Origin: Escherichia phage Penshu1
DNA: 39,263 nt
Sequence record: MK903281.1
Reading direction: 5' to 3' (one strand)
In this document: piece by piece, positions 761-29,031 of the stretch
Numbering within the stretch: the stretch's first letter is position 1
Layout: each line of letters opens with the position of its first letter
Program-made: the position numbers and the translations under genes
The notes under the pieces: model-generated
Database searches by the model: none
Told to the model about the DNA's origin: nothing
The model's input: only the letters and a program-made list of their open reading frames with translations

Positions 761-949
761 ATGGCATACCGTAAGATGACCAAAGCAGAAGTGATAGCTG
801 AATGTCGTGAGACTTTCCGCGAGTTCCCTGAGATTTTCAGAGGTGACGACATAGCGAAACAGCAGCACTGGAATGACTACACCGATAGTCTATGCAAGGA
901 TGGCATTATTTCTAACCACCAGTACAACACTTGGTCTAACCCATTTTAA
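761..949 (+). CDS. Hypothetical early protein, 62 aa
   Basis: First ORF after the early promoter and hairpin; weak SD (AAAGGA). No resemblance to T7 Ocr (gp0.3) that I can recognise. Confidence 0.5.
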   Translation: MAYRKMTKAEVIAECRETFREFPEIFRGDDIAKQQHWNDYTDSLCKDGIISNHQYNTWSNPF

Positions 950-961
950 GGAACTACAACC

Positions 962-1486
962 ATGAAACTGATAGGCAAAGGCGCGTTCACTAAGTGCTAC
1001 CTGAAGGACTGCGGGAAGCGTGTACTTCTGGTCTCTTCAGACCCAATCAAGGAGTGTATGGCGTGGGGATGGTTCCCTGAGTCTTCACTGTTCCCTGAAG
1101 TCAAGATGATTGAGGTAGGCACGTATGAGATGGACTACATGCCGCCAACACGAGGTCTCAAGGCGCATTTAGAACATGACCAGTGGCAACTCTATCAGGT
1201 GCTGCGCGACTGCTTCTCACGGTCTCCGGTATACTCTCGACCTGACGAACTGTATCACAAGTGGTACGAGATATTCCAAGATGCACACGACAGGTCTGAG
1301 TCTGAGACTGTGCGTGAGGGCCTGATGGATGTTCTGATGGCGCTGGACGCTTGCGCTAACTTCGGGTCAGACATTCAGTTTGAGATAAGCCTACGCAATG
1401 TACGGGCTGTGGCTGGCAAGTTGATACTGGTCGATTGTTTCTTCCTTGTGTCCAAGCTGCGAGAGGTGAGGTCATCAAGATGGTAA
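962..1486 (+). CDS. Protein kinase-like early protein (gp0.7 kinase-domain-like, C-terminal shut-off domain absent)
   Basis: Gly-rich loop LIGKGAFTKCY near the N-terminus resembles MLGNGHFSAAY of T7 gp0.7; 174 aa versus 359 aa in T7; position matches gene 0.7. Confidence 0.5.
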   Translation: MKLIGKGAFTKCYLKDCGKRVLLVSSDPIKECMAWGWFPESSLFPEVKMIEVGTYEMDYMPPTRGLKAHLEHDQWQLYQVLRDCFSRSPVYSRPDELYHKWYEIFQDAHDRSESETVREGLMDVLMALDACANFGSDIQFEISLRNVRAVAGKLILVDCFFLVSKLREVRSSRW

Positions 1487-8320: not shown

Positions 8321-9022
8321 ATGGCTAAAGAGCAACTGAAGACTTTCACCACTCCGGTAGCTGGTATCGTTGAGCCTTACGCATGGCTGAACAAAGCAGA
8401 CACCAAGTTTAACGAGCGTGGTGAGCATAAGGTTAACCTGACGTTCGACCTGAGCGACCCGAAGGTCCGTAAGATGATTGATGTCTTACAGAAGATTCAC
8501 GACGATGCGTATGCGAAAGCACTCGCAGACCACGAGAAGAACCCACCTCAGGTTCAGCGTGGCAAGAAGCCTATCGAGCCGCGTGAAGGCGATATGCCGT
8601 GGATTGAGAATGGTGACGGTACTGTTACCATGAAGTTTAAATGCTTTGCGTCTTACCTGAAAGACGGCAAGTCCGAGCCTATCGTATTACGGTTCTACGA
8701 CACCGATGCTAAACTCATCCGTGACGTCCCGAATATTGGCGCTGGGTCTAAGCTGAAGGTCAAGTTCAAAGTCCTGCCGTTCAAGTGGAACGCTGCGACT
8801 GGTGCAAGCGTTAAGCTGCAGCTTGAGTCCTGCCTTCTGGTAGAACTGAAGGAGTGGAAAGGTGATGGTGCTGGTGGCGATGGTGGTTGGGGTGATGATG
8901 AAGACCTCGGTACTGGTTATAAAGCGCCAACTGATGGTGACTTCGGGTCTGACGACTTCGGGTCTGACGATGGTTCCGAAGGTGGTGACGACTCCGGCTC
9001 TGGTGGCGATTACGACTTCTGA
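8321..9022 (+). CDS. Single-stranded DNA-binding protein (T7 gene 2.5 homologue), 233 aa
   Basis: Collinear similarity to T7 gp2.5 including the acidic C-terminal tail ending in F (...GGDYDF). Confidence 0.9.
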   Translation: MAKEQLKTFTTPVAGIVEPYAWLNKADTKFNERGEHKVNLTFDLSDPKVRKMIDVLQKIHDDAYAKALADHEKNPPQVQRGKKPIEPREGDMPWIENGDGTVTMKFKCFASYLKDGKSEPIVLRFYDTDAKLIRDVPNIGAGSKLKVKFKVLPFKWNAATGASVKLQLESCLLVELKEWKGDGAGGDGGWGDDEDLGTGYKAPTDGDFGSDDFGSDDGSEGGDDSGSGGDYDF

Positions 9023-9462
9023 TGACACTGAAAGAGAAACTGGAGGCTTACTCTATAGTTTCTCCTTCTGGCTGCTGGGAGTGGCAACGCTCCCGGCTAC
9101 CTTCTGGCTATGGTAGAATCTCAATAGGACACCAGAAACTGGACTATGCGCATCGGGTATCTTACCGAGAGCACGTTGGTCCCATACCTGATGGACTTCT
9201 GGTTCGCCATAAATGTGACAACCCTTGCTGCTGTAACCCGGAGCATCTTGAAGTCGGGACTCAGACAGACAACATGCAGGATTGCGTGAAGCGGGGTCGT
9301 CACTCGAAACCGCCAGTATTCAAAGGAGAAGCTAATCACAAGACTAAGCTGACCGAGGAAGACGTAAAGTTCATCCTGAAGTCTGACGAAAGTCCTACCG
9401 ACCTAGCCAAGAGATTCGGCGTTACCCCGCAAGCTATAGCGTGGAGACGAAAGAATGGCTAA
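9022..9462 (+). CDS. HNH endonuclease (homing-endonuclease-like), 146 aa
   Basis: HRVSYREHVGPIPDGLLVRHKCDNPCCCNPEHLEVGTQTDN is a canonical HNH motif; paralogue of the ORF at 17579. Confidence 0.8.
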   Translation: MTLKEKLEAYSIVSPSGCWEWQRSRLPSGYGRISIGHQKLDYAHRVSYREHVGPIPDGLLVRHKCDNPCCCNPEHLEVGTQTDNMQDCVKRGRHSKPPVFKGEANHKTKLTEEDVKFILKSDESPTDLAKRFGVTPQAIAWRRKNG

Positions 9463-9907
9463 ATGGTCAGCATCACGAGGACATGCAGTCGGGGCGTATC
9501 GCTCTGGACTGGAGGCAAAGAACCAAGAGTGGCTGGAGAAGAACGGAGTTAAGGCTGACTATGAGATGTTCTACCTTAATTATGTAATCCCAGAGTCGAC
9601 TCATAAATATACGTGCGACTTTATTCTACCAAACGGTATCATGGTGGAAACAAAAGGAATTTTTGACTCAGAGGACCGTAAGAAGCACCTATTGATTAAA
9701 GAACAGCACCCAGAGTTAGACATCCGGTTCGTGTTCTCAAGTTCACGCTCCAAGTTATACAAAGGGTCTCCAACCACGTATGGCGCATGGTGCGAAAAGA
9801 ACGGCTATAAGTATGCCGATAAGTTCATCCCGGTTGAGTGGCTGCGAGAGGAGACTGTACGTCTGCCTTCAGGTATACTCATCCCCAAGAAGAAAGGAGT
9901 TAAGTGA
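9455..9907 (+). CDS. Endonuclease I, Holliday-junction resolvase (T7 gene 3 homologue), 150 aa
   Basis: FRSGLE..., PNGI(M/F)VETKG, DRKKHLLI(K/R)EQHPELDIR and FSSSR(S/T)KLYKGSPT match T7 gp3. Confidence 0.9.
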   Translation: MAKWSASRGHAVGAYRSGLEAKNQEWLEKNGVKADYEMFYLNYVIPESTHKYTCDFILPNGIMVETKGIFDSEDRKKHLLIKEQHPELDIRFVFSSSRSKLYKGSPTTYGAWCEKNGYKYADKFIPVEWLREETVRLPSGILIPKKKGVK

Positions 9908-17341: not shown

Positions 17342-17582
17342 ATCAATCAGTAAGGCCTTCAAGAAAGTGGTGAAAAGTACGTTAGGGACCGTTGGTCTCG
17401 GTAATGACGAGGCACCAAATGTCGTTGAGGCTCAGACACCAGCAGCACCAGTGGAAGTACCGAACGACAAAGTGGAAGATGTGGATACTGAAGTGACTGC
17501 ATCTGACGATAAGAAAGTGAAGCGAACTGGTAAGCGTGGACTTAGCGTCTCTCGTACTTCCGGTGGTGGTATCTCTATATGA
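17334..17582 (+). CDS. gp7.3-like tail/virion protein, 82 aa (GTG start)
   Basis: Begins MGKSISKAFKK and ends LSVSRTSGGGISI, like T7 gp7.3 (MGKKVKKAVKK...SLSVARSSGGGINI); AAGGAG RBS before GTG 17334. Confidence 0.7.
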   Translation: MGKSISKAFKKVVKSTLGTVGLGNDEAPNVVEAQTPAAPVEVPNDKVEDVDTEVTASDDKKVKRTGKRGLSVSRTSGGGISI

Positions 17583-17989
17583 CAGACTGCATACTACATA
17601 AAGGCTGCGTTAGTAATTCTGGATATGGCCTGAAGTGGTATTCTGGTAGGCTGCGGGGAGCACACGTAGTGTCATATCTCAAGAACAAGGGACCTATACC
17701 AGAAGGGCTAGTTGTGATGCACTCTTGTGACAACAGATTGTGCGTAAATCCAGAACATCTTAGTGTTGGGACCTACAGTGAGAACATGATAGACTGTGTT
17801 TCCAAGGGACGGAAGAACGCTCAGCATAGTGACAGCCACTACAACTCCAAGCTGAGCGCTGAAGAAGTTAAGTCCATACGCAAGTCAGGACTAACGGCTA
17901 CAGAGCTTACAGCCATGTATCCTGGAGTGTCTAGGAGAACGCTGTCTGACGTATTAATAGGTAAAACATGGAGGCACGTAGATGGCTGA
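17579..17989 (+). CDS. HNH endonuclease (T7 gp7.7-like), 136 aa
   Basis: GPIPEGLVVMHSCDNRLCVNPEHLSVGTYSEN HNH motif; collinear with T7 gp7.7; paralogue of the ORF at 9022. Confidence 0.8.
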   Translation: MTDCILHKGCVSNSGYGLKWYSGRLRGAHVVSYLKNKGPIPEGLVVMHSCDNRLCVNPEHLSVGTYSENMIDCVSKGRKNAQHSDSHYNSKLSAEEVKSIRKSGLTATELTAMYPGVSRRTLSDVLIGKTWRHVDG

Positions 17990-19550
17990 ACGTGAAGGGT
18001 TCGCTGCTGAAGGAGCCAAAGCGGTCTATGACCGGCTGAAGAACGGTAGACAGCCATATGAGACACGCGCTCAGAACTGTGCTGCTGTCACTATCCCGTC
18101 ACTGTTTCCTAAGGAGTCCGACAACTCGTCTACTGAGTACACAACTCCGTGGCAAGCTGTAGGTGCTCGCTGTTTGAACAACTTGGCTGCAAAGCTTATG
18201 TTGGCGTTATTCCCTCAGTCACCGTGGATGCGACTGACAGTCTCAGAATATGAGGCCAAGACCTTGAGTCAGGACTCAGAGGCTGCTGCTCGTGTTGACG
18301 AAGGGCTGGCTATGGTCGAGCGTGTGTTGATGGCCTACATGGAGACTAACAGTTTCCGTGTCCCATTGTTCGAAGCACTGAAGCAGCTTATCGTCTCCGG
18401 TAACTGTCTTCTCTACATTCCAGAGCCTGAACAGGGAACCTACAGTCCCATGCGAATGTACCGCTTAGTGTCTTACGTTGTTCAACGTGATGCGTTCGGT
18501 AACATCTTGCAGATTGTGACTCTCGACAAGGTAGCGTTTAGTGCTCTACCGGAAGACGTGAAGTCTCAACTCAACGCAGACGACTATGAGCCTGACACAG
18601 AGCTTGAAGTGTATACGCACATCTACCGTCAGGACGACGAGTATCTGCGTTACGAGGAGGTGGAAGGCATTGAGGTAACAGGGACCGATGGTTCCTACCC
18701 GCTGACTGCATGTCCATACATCCCGGTACGAATGGTTCGACTGGATGGTGAAGACTATGGTCGTTCTTACTGCGAGGAGTATCTGGGAGACCTGAACTCG
18801 CTGGAGACGATTACAGAAGCTATCACCAAAATGGCTAAGGTAGCCTCCAAAGTGGTTGGCCTCGTTAACCCGAACGGCATCACGCAACCTCGTCGTCTTA
18901 ACAAAGCGGCTACAGGTGAGTTTGTGGCTGGTCGTGTTGAGGACATCAACTTCCTGCAACTAACGAAAGGTCAGGACTTTACGATTGCCAAGTCGGTGGC
19001 TGACGCTATCGAGCAGCGTTTAGGCTGGGCCTTCCTTCTTAATAGTGCTGTTCAGCGTAATGCCGAGCGAGTAACTGCTGAAGAGATTCGTTATGTTGCT
19101 GGCGAACTGGAGGCGACCTTAGGTGGCGTGTATTCAGTGCAGTCACAAGAGCTTCAGTTACCTATCGTCCGTGTGCTGATGAACCAGCTTCAGTCTGCTG
19201 GCATGATTCCTGACCTCCCGAAAGAAGCGGTTGAGCCTACGGTCTCCACTGGTCTGGAAGCGTTAGGTCGTGGTCAAGACTTAGAGAAGCTGACTCAGGC
19301 AGTCAACATGATGACCGGGCTACAGCCTCTGCAACAGGACCCAGACATTAACTTGCCGACCCTGAAGTTGCGACTGCTGAATGCCTTAGGTATTGACACT
19401 GCTGGTCTGCTATTGACTCAGGACGAGAAGATGCAACGTATTGCTGAACAATCCGCTCAAGGAGCTGTGGTCAACGGTGCGTCTGCTGCTGGTGCTAACA
19501 TGGGTGCTGTTGTAGGTCAGGGAGCTGGTGAGGACATGGCTCAAGCCTAA
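17982..19550 (+). CDS. Portal (head-tail connector) protein (T7 gene 8 homologue), 522 aa
   Basis: Extended collinear identity to T7 gp8 (YETRAQNCA, PWQAVGAR, YRLVSYVVQRDAFGN, GLVNPNGITQPRRL, AEEIRYVA). Confidence 0.95.
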   Translation: MAEREGFAAEGAKAVYDRLKNGRQPYETRAQNCAAVTIPSLFPKESDNSSTEYTTPWQAVGARCLNNLAAKLMLALFPQSPWMRLTVSEYEAKTLSQDSEAAARVDEGLAMVERVLMAYMETNSFRVPLFEALKQLIVSGNCLLYIPEPEQGTYSPMRMYRLVSYVVQRDAFGNILQIVTLDKVAFSALPEDVKSQLNADDYEPDTELEVYTHIYRQDDEYLRYEEVEGIEVTGTDGSYPLTACPYIPVRMVRLDGEDYGRSYCEEYLGDLNSLETITEAITKMAKVASKVVGLVNPNGITQPRRLNKAATGEFVAGRVEDINFLQLTKGQDFTIAKSVADAIEQRLGWAFLLNSAVQRNAERVTAEEIRYVAGELEATLGGVYSVQSQELQLPIVRVLMNQLQSAGMIPDLPKEAVEPTVSTGLEALGRGQDLEKLTQAVNMMTGLQPLQQDPDINLPTLKLRLLNALGIDTAGLLLTQDEKMQRIAEQSAQGAVVNGASAAGANMGAVVGQGAGEDMAQA

Positions 19551-22870: not shown

Positions 22871-25228
22871 ATGCCACTAATTACTCAATCAATCAAGAAC
22901 CTTAAAGGTGGCATTAGCCAGCAGCCTGATATACTGAGGTTCTCAGACCAAGGCGAGGCACAGGTTAACTGCTGGTCATCAGAGAGTGATGGCCTCCAGA
23001 AGCGCCCACCTACAGTCTTCAAGCGACGTCTTAACATCGACGTTGGGAGTAACCCTAAGTTCCACCTGATTAACCGTGACGAGCATGAGCAGTATTACAC
23101 CGTGTTCAATGGGTCCAACATTCAGGTAGTTGACTTGAGTGGTAATCAATACTCAGTGTCAGGTGCGGTAGACTACGTTAAGTCCTCCAACCCACGAGAT
23201 GACATCCGTGTCGTTACCGTGGCAGATTATACGTTCGTCGTTAACCGTAAGGTTGTCGTCAAAGGTGGAAGCGAGAAGTCACACTCTGGTTATAACCGCA
23301 AAGCACGAGCTTTAATTAACCTTCGTGGGGGACAGTATGGTCGCACCCTTAAGGTGGGAATCAACGGTGGCGTTAAGGTCTCGCATAAGCTACCAGCAGG
23401 TAATGATGCCGAGAATGACCCACCTAAGGTGGACGCTCAAGCCATTGGTGCAGCTCTGAGAGACCTTCTTGTTACTGCCTATCCTACCTTCACGTTTGAC
23501 CTTGGGTCTGGCTTCCTGCTAATCACAGCTCCTTCAGGGACCAACATTAACTCAGTGGAGACGGAGGATGGCTACGCTAACCAGCTAATAAGCCCAGTCC
23601 TAGACACTGTGCAAACAATCTCTAAACTACCTCTTGCGGCTCCTAATGGGTATATCATTAAGATTCAAGGTGAGACAAACAGTAGCGCCGATGAATACTA
23701 CGTGATGTATGACTCCAACACTAAGACGTGGAAGGAGACAGTGGAGCCGGGAGTTGTCACTGGGTTCGATGTCACCACAATGCCACATGCTCTGGTCAGA
23801 AAGTCTGATGGCTCCTTTGAGTTCAAGACTCTGGATTGGTCCAAGCGTGGTGCTGGTAACGATGACACAAACCCTATGCCTAGCTTCGTGGATGCTACGA
23901 TAAATGATGTGTTCTTCTACAGGAACAGGCTTGGGTTCTTGTCGGGTGAGAACGTAATAATGAGCCGTTCAGCCAGCTACTTTGCGTTCTTCCCTAAGAG
24001 TGTGGCGACACTGAGTGATGATGACCCTATTGATGTAGCTGTAAGTCACCCTCGAATCTCAATCCTTAAGTATGCCGTTCCGTTTAGCGAGCAGCTACTA
24101 CTTTGGTCAGATGAGGTGCAGTTCGTGATGACAAGCTCGGGGGTCCTTACCGCGAAGTCTATCCAGCTTGATGTAGGCTCAGAGTTTGCCTTAGGAGATA
24201 ATGCCCGACCGTTCGCTGTAGGACGCTCAGTCTTCTTCTCAGCACCTCGTGGGTCATTCACCAGCATTAAGCGATACTTCGCTGTAGCAGATGTGTCTGA
24301 CGTGAAGGATGCCGATGATACCACTGGTCACGTACTGTCCTATATCCCTAACGGGGTGTTTGACATTCATGGGACAGGGACCGAGAACTACATCTGCGTC
24401 AACTCTACAGGTGCATACAACCGAATCTACATCTACAAGTTCTTGTTTAAGGACGGCGTACAGCTTCAAGCCTCTTGGTCGCACTGGGAGTTCCCTAAAG
24501 CTGATAAGATTCTGGCGTCTGCGTCGATTGGCTCTACCATGTTCATTGTTCGTCAGCACCAAGGCGGCGTGGACCTTGAGCACCTTAAGTTCATCAAGGA
24601 GGCAACTGACTTTCCGTTAGAGCCATATAGACTCCACGTTGACTCCAAGGTGTCTATGGTAATACCAATTGGCTCATACAACGCTGACACCTATAAGACT
24701 ACGGTTGACATTGGTTCTGCTTATGGTGGAAACGCTCCGTCTCCCGGTCGGTACTATCTTATTGACAGTCAGGGTTCCTACGTGGACCTTGGTGAATTGA
24801 CAGACATCTCAACTGTGGCTATACTAAATGGCGATTGGTCAGGACGTACAGTGTTCATCGGACGGTCTTATCTGATGTCCTACAAGTTCTCACGGTTCCT
24901 GATTAAGATTGAAGACGAGAGTGGCACTCAGTCTGAAGACACTGGACGTCTACAACTTCGTCGGGCTTGGGTCAACTACAAGGACACTGGCGCTCTTAGA
25001 CTCATTGTCAGAAACGGTGAGCGGGAGTTCGTTAACACCTTTAATGGGTACACCCTTGGTCAGCAAACCATCGGGACTACCAACATTGGAGATGGTCAGT
25101 ATCGCTTCGCTATGAATGGTAACGCATTAACCACGAGTCTAACCTTAGAGTCGGATTATCCTACCCCAGTGTCCATCGTTGGCTGTGGCTGGGAGGCGTC
25201 ATACGCTAAGAAAGCTCGTTCCGTCTAA
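22871..25228 (+). CDS. Tail tubular protein B (T7 gene 12 homologue), 785 aa
   Basis: Collinear identity to T7 gp12 (NLKGGISQQPDILR, HLINRDEHEQYY, MPHALVR, GRLQLRRAWVNY, IVGCGWE). Confidence 0.95.
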   Translation: MPLITQSIKNLKGGISQQPDILRFSDQGEAQVNCWSSESDGLQKRPPTVFKRRLNIDVGSNPKFHLINRDEHEQYYTVFNGSNIQVVDLSGNQYSVSGAVDYVKSSNPRDDIRVVTVADYTFVVNRKVVVKGGSEKSHSGYNRKARALINLRGGQYGRTLKVGINGGVKVSHKLPAGNDAENDPPKVDAQAIGAALRDLLVTAYPTFTFDLGSGFLLITAPSGTNINSVETEDGYANQLISPVLDTVQTISKLPLAAPNGYIIKIQGETNSSADEYYVMYDSNTKTWKETVEPGVVTGFDVTTMPHALVRKSDGSFEFKTLDWSKRGAGNDDTNPMPSFVDATINDVFFYRNRLGFLSGENVIMSRSASYFAFFPKSVATLSDDDPIDVAVSHPRISILKYAVPFSEQLLLWSDEVQFVMTSSGVLTAKSIQLDVGSEFALGDNARPFAVGRSVFFSAPRGSFTSIKRYFAVADVSDVKDADDTTGHVLSYIPNGVFDIHGTGTENYICVNSTGAYNRIYIYKFLFKDGVQLQASWSHWEFPKADKILASASIGSTMFIVRQHQGGVDLEHLKFIKEATDFPLEPYRLHVDSKVSMVIPIGSYNADTYKTTVDIGSAYGGNAPSPGRYYLIDSQGSYVDLGELTDISTVAILNGDWSGRTVFIGRSYLMSYKFSRFLIKIEDESGTQSEDTGRLQLRRAWVNYKDTGALRLIVRNGEREFVNTFNGYTLGQQTIGTTNIGDGQYRFAMNGNALTTSLTLESDYPTPVSIVGCGWEASYAKKARSV

Positions 25229-25235
25229 CTTATTG

Positions 25236-25285
25236 AAGGGCCTATAGATTTACCTTAACTATCACTATAGGGACTATAGGCCCTT
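25236..25285 (+). promoter_or_regulatory. Phage RNAP promoter (phi13-like, CTTAACTATCACTATAGGGACT) nested inside a perfect 12-bp inverted repeat
   Basis: Promoter at 25254-25275 with +1 G at 25270; AAGGGCCTATAG (25236-25247) is the exact reverse complement of CTATAGGCCCTT (25274-25285). Confidence 0.65.
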
Positions 25286-25304
25286 AAGGTTATAAGGAGA
25301 CTTT

Positions 25305-25763
25305 ATGTATATTCGCAAGGCTGCGGAACAGGATGTCCACTACTTTCTGTGGCATCTTTCAGAAGATGATGTTAATGAGTGCAAAGCAAACTACGGGTCA
25401 ACCGTGGGTCTCTCTGAAAGACTGCTTAAGCACCTATCTCCGTCATCTGTGGTTTTAACGAACGGTGTAGGTGAAGTGTTTGCCTATGGTGGAAACCAAG
25501 GGGATAACGTATGGTTCTTGACTTCCGGTCTGGTCTACAAGCTGGGGCCTAAAGAGAAGCGAGAGTTCATAAAGCGTATCTCTGAGTACAGGGACTTAAT
25601 GTTAGACCAATACGGGACCATCTGGAACTACGTGTGGTCAGGCAATAAGTCTCACATTAAATTCTTGAAGTTGCTTGGGGCTAAGTTCCATGATGATTGG
25701 ACTGTAAGTCCGGTAACTGGTGAGCGTTTTCAACTATTCACTATCTCTAAGGAGCAAAGATGA
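25305..25763 (+). CDS. Gene 13-position protein (internal virion/assembly protein homologue by synteny), 152 aa
   Basis: ORF with AAGGAG RBS immediately downstream of the phi13-like promoter; function assigned by position only. Confidence 0.55.
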   Translation: MYIRKAAEQDVHYFLWHLSEDDVNECKANYGSTVGLSERLLKHLSPSSVVLTNGVGEVFAYGGNQGDNVWFLTSGLVYKLGPKEKREFIKRISEYRDLMLDQYGTIWNYVWSGNKSHIKFLKLLGAKFHDDWTVSPVTGERFQLFTISKEQR

Positions 25764-26146
25764 CCAAGGTTTGTACAGTCTGTAAGATTGAGAAGCCTCG
25801 CTCTGCGTTCTCCCCACGGAAGGACTCAAAGTGTGGTATCCGTTCGGCCTGTAAGTTGTGCCACAATGGTCGAAGCCATAAGAACAAAGGATACGAAAAG
25901 TATCACCTAACTCAGGACGAGTACGATTCAATCCTCAGGTCTCAGGACGGAGTGTGCGCTATATGCAAAACTTCAGGACCTAGCCGAGGGCTATGCGTGG
26001 ACCACTGCCATGACTCCGGTAAGGTGCGTGGTATTCTGTGCCACACCTGCAACCTTAAGCTGACACGTAGAAACTATCCGTCCACCTGCGACAATTTCGA
26101 CGAGAAGGCTGCTGAGTATCTGGCTGGTAGCCGGAAGGGGGATTAG
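25760..26146 (+). CDS. Endonuclease VII-like (His-Me finger / HNH superfamily) putative homing endonuclease, 128 aa
   Basis: GVCAICKTSGPSRGLCVDHCHDSGKVRGILCHTCNLKL matches the T4 Endo VII core (CLICQ...HLDHDH...GKVRGLLCNLCN); N-terminal CxxC...C...C zinc motif; inserted between genes 13 and 14. Confidence 0.8.
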   Translation: MTKVCTVCKIEKPRSAFSPRKDSKCGIRSACKLCHNGRSHKNKGYEKYHLTQDEYDSILRSQDGVCAICKTSGPSRGLCVDHCHDSGKVRGILCHTCNLKLTRRNYPSTCDNFDEKAAEYLAGSRKGD

Positions 26147-26173
26147 AAAATTTGCGAACCAATTTCTATCGGC

Positions 26174-26737
26174 ATGGGTGTCATGGCTGTAGCCGGGGCC
26201 ACTATGTCCGCGTCCCAACAGGCCAAGGCAGAGGGAGCTGCTATTGACGCTCAGAACCGACAGGCTCAGGAGATGATTAAGCAGATGAACTACTCCGACG
26301 CCAACCTGAAGATGCAAGAGCGAGACCTTAAGAATCAGCAGGTCGCTGAGCTGACCGAGACGACTCTGAATGGTATCCGCAATCAGGGAATGGTCCGTGC
26401 AGCAGTGGCTGAGTCCGGTCTGGAAGGAAACTCCATGAACCGCATTGAGCGCTCAGTGGAAGGCGACACCGTGAAAGAACGTGCTGGCATCACCGAAAGT
26501 TACGACCGCGACTATGCGACTATCTTCGGGAACCGTATCGCCAACATTGAGAACACCAAGTCTGCTATCCGTGGTCAAGGTAAAATCATCAAGACCAGCC
26601 CACTAGCTCATGCACTTAATGTTGCTAACGCCGGGATGCAGGGATACGCTGCTGGTGAGTCAATCTCTGGGGCATCAAGCTCTGGGGGTGCTGCACCGAT
26701 TAGTGCTGCTAAAGGCACACCTACAGGTCATAGCTAA
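26174..26737 (+). CDS. Internal virion protein (T7 gene 14 homologue), 187 aa
   Basis: Collinear similarity to T7 gp14 (SGLEGNSMNRIER, YDRDYATIFG, C-terminal AAKGTPTG); weak RBS, probably displaced by the upstream endonuclease insertion. Confidence 0.8.
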   Translation: MGVMAVAGATMSASQQAKAEGAAIDAQNRQAQEMIKQMNYSDANLKMQERDLKNQQVAELTETTLNGIRNQGMVRAAVAESGLEGNSMNRIERSVEGDTVKERAGITESYDRDYATIFGNRIANIENTKSAIRGQGKIIKTSPLAHALNVANAGMQGYAAGESISGASSSGGAAPISAAKGTPTGHS

Positions 26738-26748
26738 GAGGAGGACTA

Positions 26749-29031
26749 ATGGCTAGTAATATTGAATCAGCTCTGGCTAATCGGACTATGGGTCGTGGCA
26801 GAGCGCCGGGTAAAACTATCGCCGTCAACTATCAAGCAGCCAACGTTCAGGCTCCGACTGGCGACTCCGGGCTGGCTCGTGCGTTAACTAACTTCGTTGA
26901 GTCTGGGACTGGATTGTATAAGCAGTTCAAGGACGAGGAGAAGACCAGAGCTGACGAGCGGTCTAACGAGATTATCCGTAAGTTGACACCTCAGCAAAGA
27001 CGTGAGGCTATCCAGAACGGCACACTGCTGTATCAGGATGACCCTTACGCTATGGAAGCACTTCGAGTCAAGACGGGACGTAACGCTGCCTTTGCGGTGG
27101 ATGACGAGATTAACGTTAAGATTCAGAACGGTGAGTTCCGTACACGTCAGGAAATGGAAGAGTATCGCCACCAGCGACTTCAGGACGCCGCTAAGTCCTA
27201 TGCTGAAGAGGCAGGTATTAACCCTACAGATGAGTTCTTCCAGCGCGGGTTCAACGATAACATCACAGACCGCAACATCGCTATCTATGGGTCTTTCAAT
27301 AAGTATTTCAGCAAGCAGTCTGAAGAGACAGCAATGTTGAACACTCGTATTGAGATGAACTCATTCCTGAACGATGGCGACCTGATGCGTTCACCTGAGT
27401 CCGGTAAGACCTTCATGGCCTACCTTCGTGATGGCCTGACTACTGCTGCTATCCCTTCGGACCAGCGAGCACGGGAGGTCATTACCCAGACGGTCCGTGA
27501 CGCAATCCAGAAGTCAGGAGGCTCAAACTTCCTACAGCAAGTCCGTGGCGAGCGTATCACCCTTAACGGCGTTGACGCTACAGTCGAAGAGATTGTAGGA
27601 CCTGATGTCTTCAACGCTGCTATTGTTGAGGCACAAGGCACCGAGTACAAGCTGGTGGCTAAGTATCAGGAAGACTTAGCGTTAGGCGTTCAGTCTGCGA
27701 TTCTTCAGGACGACCCAACCATTGGTCTTGCCCAGATTCAGAAACTCAAGGAGCAGAACAACCTGCTTCAGCCGGGTGAAGAACTCACGCCTCAGCGTCA
27801 GATGCTTATTAATGCCGAAGCCAGCTTACTGGAAGCGGTCAAGCGTAAGTCTGCTGAACAGGCGAAGGAGAACAAGAAGTTAATCCAGACCCAGAACAAG
27901 CAACTGGTCATTGACCAAGTTTATCAGCGACGTCTGGCTGGGGACAACGTGTCCACCAATTATGAGGACCTTCCGGTCTCTGAAGCTACAGGAGAGTTCA
28001 AGCGTTCAGACATGAACAACTATGCGTCTACTAAGCTACAGCAGATTGACCAGATGGACATCCCTGAAGCGGCTAAAGACGCGCAGAAGGTGGCATTGTT
28101 AAGGGCTGACACTAACAATGGTCCGTTCCGTAATGCCTTCCAGACGCTGACTCAGGACGCTGCTGGAGAGTGGCAAGCTGCGGTCATCCGTGGACAGTAC
28201 GACCCAGACAAGATGCAACGCTTCGAATCTCTTCGTCGTGCCTACACTCAGGACCCTTCAAGTTTTGCTGCGCTGTATCCTGACCAAGCTCAATTGTTCT
28301 CTACGTTCGACCAGATGGACAAGATGGGTCTGGACCCTCAGACGATGATTGAAGCTGATAAGCAAGCTGCAAGTCAAAGCCGTGAGATGCGCATGGAGTC
28401 AGACAAGGCGTGGCAGGAGTTGAAGAACGACTCCAAGAACACCCAGTTGTCTCGCCTCCCAACGTCTCTGGACTCAAGTGCTCGTAAGGTCTGGGACTCA
28501 TGGTACTATCGTACAGGTAACGCTGACGCTGCAACTCAGCAGACTCAACGCTGGCTGAATGAAAATACCGTAACGTTCCAGTCTGAAGGTTCTGACGGTA
28601 AGTCAATCGGCATGGTGTCCAAGCATCAACTGATGGTCGGGGACAACCCAGAGTCGTGGCAGGTTGGTCGAGACATTATCGACACCGCTCGTAAGCAGCT
28701 CATTAAGGCCAACCCTTGGGTAGTGAACTCTCAGTTGTCCGTTGTTGAACAGAACGGCTCTGTCTTCCTTCAGGACGCTACCGGGACCATTCGCATCCGC
28801 TACGATAAGGAACTGGTAGGCAAACTGTACCGTGAACAGCAGAAGCAAGCTGAGGATAAAGCCTACGCTGAAGCTGAGCGTACAGCCAACACCCGCGCTC
28901 GCATTGTCGAGACTAAAGCGGCTGGTGATAAACGTAGAGCCGAGCGTGAAGGTAACATCCAGAAACGAGGCGGTCTGTACAGTGATGTCTCGCTGGAGGG
29001 TATCGCAAACACCTTAATCGGTAAGGAGTAA
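26749..29031 (+). CDS. Internal virion protein (T7 gene 15 homologue), 760 aa
   Basis: ERSNEIIRKLTPQQRREAIQNGTLLYQDDPYAMEALRVKTGRNAA is near-identical to T7 gp15; similarity continues along the length. Confidence 0.9.
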   Translation: MASNIESALANRTMGRGRAPGKTIAVNYQAANVQAPTGDSGLARALTNFVESGTGLYKQFKDEEKTRADERSNEIIRKLTPQQRREAIQNGTLLYQDDPYAMEALRVKTGRNAAFAVDDEINVKIQNGEFRTRQEMEEYRHQRLQDAAKSYAEEAGINPTDEFFQRGFNDNITDRNIAIYGSFNKYFSKQSEETAMLNTRIEMNSFLNDGDLMRSPESGKTFMAYLRDGLTTAAIPSDQRAREVITQTVRDAIQKSGGSNFLQQVRGERITLNGVDATVEEIVGPDVFNAAIVEAQGTEYKLVAKYQEDLALGVQSAILQDDPTIGLAQIQKLKEQNNLLQPGEELTPQRQMLINAEASLLEAVKRKSAEQAKENKKLIQTQNKQLVIDQVYQRRLAGDNVSTNYEDLPVSEATGEFKRSDMNNYASTKLQQIDQMDIPEAAKDAQKVALLRADTNNGPFRNAFQTLTQDAAGEWQAAVIRGQYDPDKMQRFESLRRAYTQDPSSFAALYPDQAQLFSTFDQMDKMGLDPQTMIEADKQAASQSREMRMESDKAWQELKNDSKNTQLSRLPTSLDSSARKVWDSWYYRTGNADAATQQTQRWLNENTVTFQSEGSDGKSIGMVSKHQLMVGDNPESWQVGRDIIDTARKQLIKANPWVVNSQLSVVEQNGSVFLQDATGTIRIRYDKELVGKLYREQQKQAEDKAYAEAERTANTRARIVETKAAGDKRRAEREGNIQKRGGLYSDVSLEGIANTLIGKE

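Follow-up and report, generated by a model that had tools for sequence, protein, structure and literature searches.

What occupies the junction between genes 13 and 14 of Escherichia phage Penshu1, and from which codon is gene 14 translated when that junction is interrupted? We analyzed a 39,263-nucleotide stretch from this phage (sequence record MK903281.1, hereafter the window), in which a 128-amino-acid (aa) open reading frame (ORF) of the gene 13.5 type, with an ATG start and a TAG stop, lies between the two genes (25760..26146, + strand). The original prediction, made from the letters alone, held that the junction is gene-free in T7, that the ORF is a free-standing homing endonuclease with an Endonuclease VII (Endo VII) core, and that its insertion had disturbed the translation signals of gene 14. 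The T7 record bears out the first point, with genes 13 and 14 separated by 4 nt and no gene in between. On the evidence below we favor, with good confidence, a reading that goes one step further, in which a homing endonuclease cassette would have lodged after the ancestral gene 14 start and gene 14 would now be restarted from signals carried by the cassette, an AUU codon among them.

The predicted Endo VII core was confirmed by profile matches and motifs. The translation contains CAICK, VDHCH and GKVRGILCHTCN, and it matches Pfam Endonuclease_7 (PF02945) over residues 46-121 (E=9.4e-18, 64.4 bits), above the curated cut-off of 23.6 bits, as well as PHROG 2633 'endonuclease VII' (E=2.4e-27). 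The cysteine-rich zinc motif expected at the amino terminus is also real. This zinc ribbon (25772..25861, +) holds C5, C8, C31 and C34, all four invariant in an alignment of eight endonucleases from the 13/14 site, taken from Kayfunavirus (three classes), Przondovirus kpssk3, Teetrevirus Koku and phage PMBT12, that are 35-88% identical to the window protein. We presume that the ribbon is the DNA-recognition module. The catalytic core (25955..26053, +) comprises C66-x2-C69, D81-H82-C83-H84, R90 and C94-x2-C97-N98, of which D81, H82, H84, R90, N98 and the cysteine pairs C66/C69 and C94/C97 are invariant in the eight junction proteins and 21 database homologues. Their equivalents in T4 Endo VII are C23/C26, D40/H41/H43, R54 and C58/C61/N62 (mapping from PMC6083498). 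In an AlphaFold (AF2) model with a predicted local distance difference test (pLDDT) score of 84.4, β79-82, β89-93 and α95-102 form a predicted ββα-metal (ββα-Me) core, and the ribbon is modeled as strands 2-4 and 11-13 and helix 32-39 with a pLDDT of about 90. We conclude that the ORF encodes a predicted ββα-Me nuclease with an intact Endo VII motif (DHHRN) and an N-terminal zinc ribbon.

The name of the family raises a different possibility, namely that the protein is a true Endo VII-type Holliday-junction resolvase or a mismatch nuclease acting in phage recombination or packaging. The Pfam family is named for T4 Endo VII, and many records carry the annotation 'endonuclease VII'. We rejected this role, which we consider very improbable, on several grounds. 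The window encodes its own T7-type resolvase, endonuclease I (E=2.5e-77), and therefore has no need for an Endo VII resolvase; moreover, the gene is missing in about 90% of close relatives. The resolvase architecture of an N-terminal catalytic domain followed by a C-terminal dimerisation domain was not found, since the motif of the window endonuclease lies in the C-terminal half, behind the zinc ribbon, as in members of the 'endonuclease clade' (PMC6083498). When solved structures were searched by sequence, the best match was the sequence-specific enzyme Hpy99I (3FC3; E=1.2e-4, residues 3-122), whose zinc region aligns with the N-terminal ribbon, and T4 Endo VII came second, aligning over residues 52-101 only (E=6e-3). 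The top Protein Data Bank matches of the AF2 model in Foldseek were likewise Hpy99I (E=9e-5), PacI and T4 Endo VII, for which we used the rank order and motifs and not the superposition, as template modeling (TM) scores were about 0.3 and the root-mean-square deviation was >10 Å.

The kind of endonuclease is already known from EcoDS1 gp13.5 and from the family of Fang et al. 2018. EcoDS1 gp13.5, with alleles in Hafnia phage Ca/yong1, 101136BS1 and TH20, occurs in the same genus at the same 13/14 insertion point, has the Endo VII motif and an N-terminal CxxC…CxxC ribbon, uses the AAGGAG and ATG of gene 14, and carries a gene 14 Shine-Dalgarno sequence (SD) in its last codons. It differs from the window protein in its length of 133 aa, in sharing 39% protein identity, and in that the gene 14 GTG overlaps the gp13.5 stop codon (GTGTGTGA). 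The Hafnia phage Ca paper lists it as Endonuclease VII (PMC8861465), as does GenBank, and this paper, where the gene is listed without analysis, was the only literature on 'gp13.5' that we found. Fang et al. defined the DHHRN homing endonuclease family, demonstrated by mutagenesis that the residues are needed in F-CphI, and placed the Endo VII-like proteins of endonuclease I-encoding T7-like podoviruses in the 'endonuclease clade' and not the resolvase clade (PMC6083498). F-CphI of cyanophage S-PM2 resembles the window protein in its C-terminal Endo VII motif, its D/H/H/R/N residues, its two CxxC pairs and its free-standing, phage-borne nature; however, it cuts intron-less psbA experimentally and works with a group I intron, whereas the window endonuclease has no intron and a putative target in the start region of a virion gene. 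Hpy99I shares the zinc ribbon and ββα-Me core and is a sequence-specific double-strand cutter, but it is a bacterial restriction enzyme with a methylase and an extra N-terminal domain, and its TM-score to the model is 0.30. T4 endonuclease VII (gp49; 1EN7, 1E7D) has the same catalytic motif and zinc site, but it is structure-specific, has an N-terminal motif and a C-terminal dimerisation domain, and is the only resolvase of T4.

If the ORF is a mobile element, the site should be found both occupied and empty, and this is the pattern among the 208-240 Kayfunavirus-like GenBank records matched by flank-based searches. The original prediction had staked its claim on the ORF not being universal at the junction, and only about 10 of these records carry the window allele in full, namely ST1/3/21 at 99.2% nucleotide identity and HC13, CY1, PSK1, Esher2, ZCEC02, U8 and pO91 at 78-80%. 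The EcoDS1 gp13.5-type allele occupies the site in 8 records, Ro45lw carries a third allele with a 3' end of the window type, and remnants are present in about 5 phages. The site is empty in about 85-90% of related phages, K1F included, and in a spread sample of records most span 609-613 bp, which is the empty-site length. Junction alignments define an inserted cassette of 390 bp, from the base after the ancestral gene 14 ATG through the ATT that has replaced it at the gene 14 start position (25763..26152, +), in agreement with anchor-to-anchor distances of 521 bp for carriers versus 131 bp for the empty-site phage PR_Kaz2018. Both gp13 and gp14 are intact by profile, and the endonuclease ORF is independent and lies outside any intron or intein. 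When IMG/VR was scanned for the pattern of the 3' junction, the hits were all copies of ZG49 and Ro45lw. A metagenome scan with NNN at the start-codon position returned 26 loci, of which 25 were chance matches and one was real (L040), and we therefore conclude that few such coliphages are present in the scanned metagenome collections.

The cassette also has a history different from that of its surroundings. The window and ST3 are 91.2% identical over the whole genome, yet an island at 25760-26166 contains 3 mismatches in 407 bp against a flank mismatch rate of 8.9% (binomial p about 2e-12 for the cassette). Five mismatches lie at the ATG or up to 5 bases before it, and from 26167 on mismatches are dense. 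The downstream flank is nearest to the empty-site phage EPr2 (94.6%), not to ST21. Between the window allele and those of PSK1, CY1 and U8, synonymous divergence (dS) is about 1.4 and the ratio of non-synonymous to synonymous divergence (dN/dS) is 0.05-0.08, and therefore the protein has long been kept functional. Decay is also visible, as the ST1/3/21 endonuclease carries C94R, a change at an otherwise invariant zinc-ligand cysteine that is intact in the window copy; this substitution may be an early inactivating step. As a separate observation, the otherwise identical endonuclease ORFs of U8 and PSK1 have 5 non-synonymous and 0 synonymous differences, which hints that selection on the U8 endonuclease is relaxed or changed.

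Purifying selection could also reflect a benefit to the phage, if the endonuclease were kept mainly as a competitive weapon that cuts co-infecting relatives (marker exclusion). The low dN/dS over so large a dS would fit this explanation, as would the persistence of three diverged allele classes at one site across several genera and the presence of three separate HNH-type genes in the window. A weapon of value to its carrier is harder to reconcile with an occupancy of about 10% of sites and with several independent decayed copies, and the zinc-ligand substitution in ST1/3/21 fits a selfish cycle of invasion, decay and loss. We consider this explanation improbable as the main reason for retention, although the two are compatible in that homing itself excludes the rival allele. 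Taken together, sporadic occupancy, precise boundaries, discordant history, purifying selection and decay are hallmarks of a free-standing homing endonuclease gene in genome comparisons, and we regard that reading as well supported. On these comparisons of empty sites, cassette, island and decayed copies, the ORF very likely is, or recently was, a homing endonuclease, as had been proposed.

How is gene 14 started in the carriers? In empty-site phages the gene begins AAGGAG-GACGT-ATG-TGC-GAG-CCA… (PR_Kaz2018) or …GTG-TGC-GAG-CCA… (EPr2), and the N-terminus of gp14 there is therefore MCEPISIG. In carriers, AAGGAG-NNNNN-ATG/GTG is followed by the endonuclease codons ACN-AAG-GTN-TGT…, indicating that the SD and the initiation codon of gene 14 have been taken over. 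The ancestral gene 14 SD of the window, AAGGAG (25749..25754, +; duplex of -8.3 kcal/mol), is now that of the endonuclease, whose ATG overlaps the gene 13 TGA as ATGA at 25760-25763, just as the original prediction had described; in empty-site phages gp13 is longer by a few codons and overlaps the gene 14 start.

Gene 14 has received other signals in exchange. All carriers end in …CGG-AAG-GGG-GAT-TAG-RAA-ATT-TGC-GAR-CCA…, and the last codons of the endonuclease (…R K G D) contain a replacement SD for gene 14, AAGGGGGA (26135..26142, +). With a duplex of -10.8 kcal/mol against the anti-SD, it falls between the SDs of gene 13 (-9.3 kcal/mol) and gene 15 (-12.0 kcal/mol), and in Ro45lw it is a perfect AAGGAGGA. 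Seven nt downstream is ATT 26150, at the exact position of the empty-site ATG/GTG, and the endonuclease stop, TAG (26144..26146, +), stands in the gene 14 frame one codon (AAA) before it, as read from the sequence. Both the SD and the ATT are kept in 19/19 carriers, a set with 12 distinct downstream sequences that includes the 70%-identical allele L050, metagenomic contigs and loci from the NNN-start scan. The claim that gene 14 has an unusually weak ribosome-binding site thus holds for the ATG at 26174 and fails for the ancestral start position, where the SD is strong and well spaced. The broader idea of disturbed translation signals was right in spirit, but it rested on the wrong gene 14 start, and the signals were replaced by a new SD and an ATT and not merely weakened.

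The UAG-AAA-AUU sequence behind a strong SD has the layout of the Escherichia coli thrS-infC junction (UAA GGU AUU), where a stop, a 3-nt gap and AUU follow an SD within the upstream ORF, and we therefore propose AUU 26150 as the gene 14 start. Gene 14 as proposed (26150..26737, +) encodes a 195-residue product, (M)CEPISIGMGVMAVAG…. The ORF that flanks the cassette downstream matches the gp14 profile PF24072 (E=5.3e-42), and the match begins at model position 1 only with the ATT start, which raises the score from 144.3 to 155.8 bits. Additionally, the codons between the ATT and the first ATG contain no stop and no frameshift in the 19 carriers. Variable sites after the ATT are distributed 4/2/8 over the three codon positions, i.e. 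with a third-position bias. Considered at first as proof of translation, this variation was given less weight, since the pattern could have entered through recombination with empty-site phages. No special RNA structure was detected at the endonuclease/gene 14 junction (z=-0.31); in the predicted centroid fold, which is not significant, the SD and AUU are unpaired and the downstream ATGs lie in a stem.

The obvious alternative accepts the mobile endonuclease but starts gene 14 from an AUG further downstream (window position 26174 or 26183; codon +11 in ST21 and PSK1), so that gp14 would lack its first 8-11 residues and the ATT and SD-like tail would be leftovers. Such an AUG is a canonical start, an in-frame ATG is present within 11 codons in every carrier, and the ATG at 26174..26176 (+) is the one taken by gene callers. 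Every annotator has likewise chosen a downstream ATG: in carrier GenBank records (e.g. L001, L006, L007, L011, L012 and L053-L056) gene 14 begins at internal ATGs, at codon +8, +11 or +18 counted from the ancestral start. AUU is also an inefficient initiator: by itself it falls 6-8 fold short of AUG, a deficit that narrows to about 4 fold in the infC context (PMC3592434). However, neither AUG has a usable SD, as the duplex is -1.7 kcal/mol at 26174 and -4.7 kcal/mol, at a useless 2-nt spacing, at 26183, and both lie in the stem of the non-significant fold that leaves the SD and AUU free. Their position is not conserved either. The position of ATG 26174 reads CTA, TTA, CTC or ATA in 12/19 carriers, and the first canonical in-frame start varies among carriers between codons +8, +10 and +11, whereas the distance from SD to ATT is held in all 19, even in relics of only 24-60 codons. 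The N-terminal MCEPISIG belongs to the gp14 family profile, and Cys2 is also present in T7-group gp14 of Klebsiella phages (MCW…). We consider a downstream start rather unlikely and ATG 26174 probably an internal Met codon, and we suggest, at somewhat better than even confidence, that gene 14 is initiated at AUU 26150. On a point of annotation alone, the CY1 GenBank record leaves its endonuclease without annotation.

Known systems offer partial parallels for such a start. Osterman et al. found that the thrS-infC junction yields about twice the expression of a stand-alone AUU and that reinitiation and de novo initiation contribute about equally (PMC3592434). Unlike the AUU of infC, which is autoregulatory and sensed by IF3, the putative AUU start proposed here seems to be a side effect of a mobile-element insertion. 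In T4, overlapping stop and start codons of free-standing endonucleases such as mobE suggest coupling (PMC2988022), and in the T4-type set, which includes mobE at nrdA/nrdB and the 'genes-in-pieces' nrdA of Aeh1, endonucleases overlap or split host genes. There the endonuclease is coupled to the upstream host gene, whereas here the downstream essential gene also seems to depend on the endonuclease ORF. We found no description in the literature of the capture of the gene 14 start, the invariant ATT or in-frame relics, although the literature that could be searched was incomplete.

The remaining endonuclease lineages at this junction carry comparable signals at their 3' ends. Their tail codons ('…YL…GG/GE') form an SD, and an ATG or GTG lies 0-4 nt from the endonuclease stop or overlaps it; the 3' ends read GGAGGTGAATAATG in kpssk3, AGAGGAGAATAACTATG in Koku, AGGAGGATAACCATATG in PMBT12 and GGAGGTGAACCGTG in the EcoDS1 type. 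Among the junction endonuclease lineages, ATT at the gene 14 start is confined to that of the window. The compared junctions mark the 13/14 site as a hotspot for insertion, where a similar layout recurs. A further insert was observed in Cronobacter phage Dev2 (L052, 611..742) and Citrobacter phage SH5, where a 43-aa CxxC…CxxC mini-ORF (MSLKGLIATKLLCPKCG…WWCYKCNREVKDV) sits at the identical point after the AAGGAGGACGT-ATG of gene 14 and has a 3' end, GGGAGGTGAAAG-ATG-TGT-GAA, that supplies a new SD and ATG for gene 14. This mini-ORF may be a relic of another endonuclease.

Deletion relics of the cassette bear on how gene 14 is translated in its presence. They were found in six genomes (Esher6/7, Monomax, KM02, L040, L051 and ZG49) and include five independent internal deletions from three parental alleles. 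The Esher6/7 relic retains 24 codons (MTKVCTVCKIEK/AAKYLADSRKGD), that of Monomax 29 codons with a 5' end of the Ro45lw type, that of KM02 60 codons without the catalytic core, and that of L040 49 codons without DHxH, while L051 has lost 27 zinc-ribbon codons. At least two of the internal deletions occurred at 6-bp microhomologies (GAGAAG, AAGCTG). None of the five shifts the reading frame, and each retains the endonuclease SD and start as well as the 3' end TAG-RAA-ATT. Under a uniform frame model the probability of five in-frame deletions is (1/3)^5 = 0.004, or about 0.01 without L051. The retention of the frame and of both ends in all five relics suggests selection for the passage of ribosomes from the captured start as far as the stop beside the AUU, and hence translational coupling between the endonuclease ORF and gene 14.

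The shared frame would also permit UAG read-through, giving an endonuclease-gp14 fusion packaged with the internal core. The endonuclease and gene 14 are in one frame with TAG AAA between them, the 390-bp length of the cassette is a multiple of 3, and the frame is kept in all relics. Other lineages are nonetheless out of frame or overlapping, as in the EcoDS1 type and in kpssk3 (TAATG), L050 has a second in-frame stop, and no read-through signal is evident. Moreover, a fusion could not supply the roughly 12 copies of gp14 per virion given in the T7 record. We consider read-through extremely improbable and rejected it.

Besides the annotators' choice and the low efficiency of AUU, several observations weigh against initiation at AUU, coupling and homing as we propose them. 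Double-strand-break repair usually leaves co-converted flanks, of which the island shows hardly any on its left side. The stretch after the ATT is coding in empty-site phages, and its coding-like pattern is possibly imported by recombination. L051 came from a protein search, which is biased to in-frame relics, and a deletion into the +2 frame would stop at 26128, before the SD, and would possibly be tolerated, which weakens the frame statistic to about 0.03. Finally, gene 13 translation in ZG49 ends at a TGA about 200 nt 5' of the ATT, and in L050 an additional TAA precedes the ATT by 15 nt. Termination exactly at the TAG is therefore not obligatory. The ZG49 record (L003, ~940..1190) contains a deletion that fuses gene 13 codon 108 to endonuclease codon 64 and makes the TGA; either gp13 without its last 44 residues is functional, so that the C-terminus is dispensable, or the record (version 5) is erroneous.

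We propose the following sequence of events. The endonuclease would be transcribed late, from a phi13-like promoter, and translated from the former SD and ATG of gene 14. In a mixed infection with an empty-site relative, the enzyme would cut the uninterrupted 13/14 junction, and recombinational repair off the carrier genome would copy the cassette into the cut site. The carrier itself would be immune because the cassette splits the target, a resistance that we infer from the split sequence alone. Gene 14 would be kept alive by the signals of the cassette, that is, the SD AAGGGGGA, the TAG, one spacer codon and the AUU, at which some initiation would be de novo, directed by the SD, and the rest would come from ribosomes that finish translating the endonuclease ORF. 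With gene 14 dependent on these signals, the cassette could therefore be lost only precisely or by in-frame deletions that keep both ends, and dead copies would therefore persist as translated in-frame mini-ORFs of 24-60 codons. We put forward tentatively, at somewhat less than even confidence, that the lineage is hard to delete for this reason, as it would control initiation of an essential virion gene through capture of the SD and AUG and through dependence of the AUU on the endonuclease ORF.

The window belongs to Kayfunavirus (K1F-like, Studiervirinae), and its top relatives over the 13/14 region are the Salmonella phages ST21, ST3 and ST1 (93.8%). Gene 13 (25305..25763, +) encodes an internal virion/scaffold protein of 152 aa (PF11090, E=5.9e-42). 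Upstream of it lies a phi13-like phage RNA polymerase promoter, AACTATCACTATAGGGA (25257..25273, +), one of 10 + strand copies in the window against 0.12 expected by chance, and the T7 promoter phi13 occupies the equivalent place. A scan of 25150-26800 detected no meaningful sigma-70 promoter, and no convincing terminator was found between genes 13 and 14. As nothing splits genes 13 and 14, the endonuclease ORF is placed on the late 13-14-15 transcript, and by these predictions the transcript carrying genes 13, 13.5, 14 and 15 is driven from the phi13-like promoter. At 25236..25285, a perfect 12-bp inverted repeat (AAGGGCCTATAG / CTATAGGCCCTT) flanks the promoter on both sides, and the RNA of this segment folds with -21.5 kcal/mol (z=-3.05; 0/200 shuffles as stable). 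This repeat possibly corresponds to the RNase III site R13 of T7.

Two more inserts were observed elsewhere in the window. A 146-aa HNH_3 ORF (9022..9462, +; PF13392, E=1.6e-16) overlaps gp2.5 and gp3: gp2.5, the single-stranded DNA-binding protein, ends at 9022 and gp3, endonuclease I, starts at 9455. The 9001-9500 region is absent from ST3 (alignment coverage 0.14), and the ORF is probably a second free-standing homing endonuclease. A 136-aa HNH_3 / His-Me finger ORF (17579..17989, +; PF13392, E=2e-12) overlaps the downstream portal gene (17982..), is also absent from ST3 (coverage 0.19 in 17501-18000), and is probably a third homing endonuclease in the genome.

A homing endonuclease as such is routine here, since annotations in Kayfunavirus and related genera already include Endo VII genes of the gene 13.5 type. 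The window, with HNH-type inserts that have no counterpart in ST3, exemplifies the traffic of endonucleases in therapeutic-type coliphages. The start of gene 14 has the more practical consequence that its product is probably truncated at the N-terminus by 8-18 codons in the annotation of every carrier genome examined. Being compact, the 13/14 junction also lends itself as a natural system in which to examine AUU initiation and termination-reinitiation on an essential phage gene. If the coupling is true, it would describe a route by which a selfish gene entrenches itself, and it would explain the survival of short relic ORFs. If the proposal as a whole is true, the junction would represent a translational 'addiction' strategy of a homing endonuclease and a natural phage counterpart of the infC AUU start on a structural gene.

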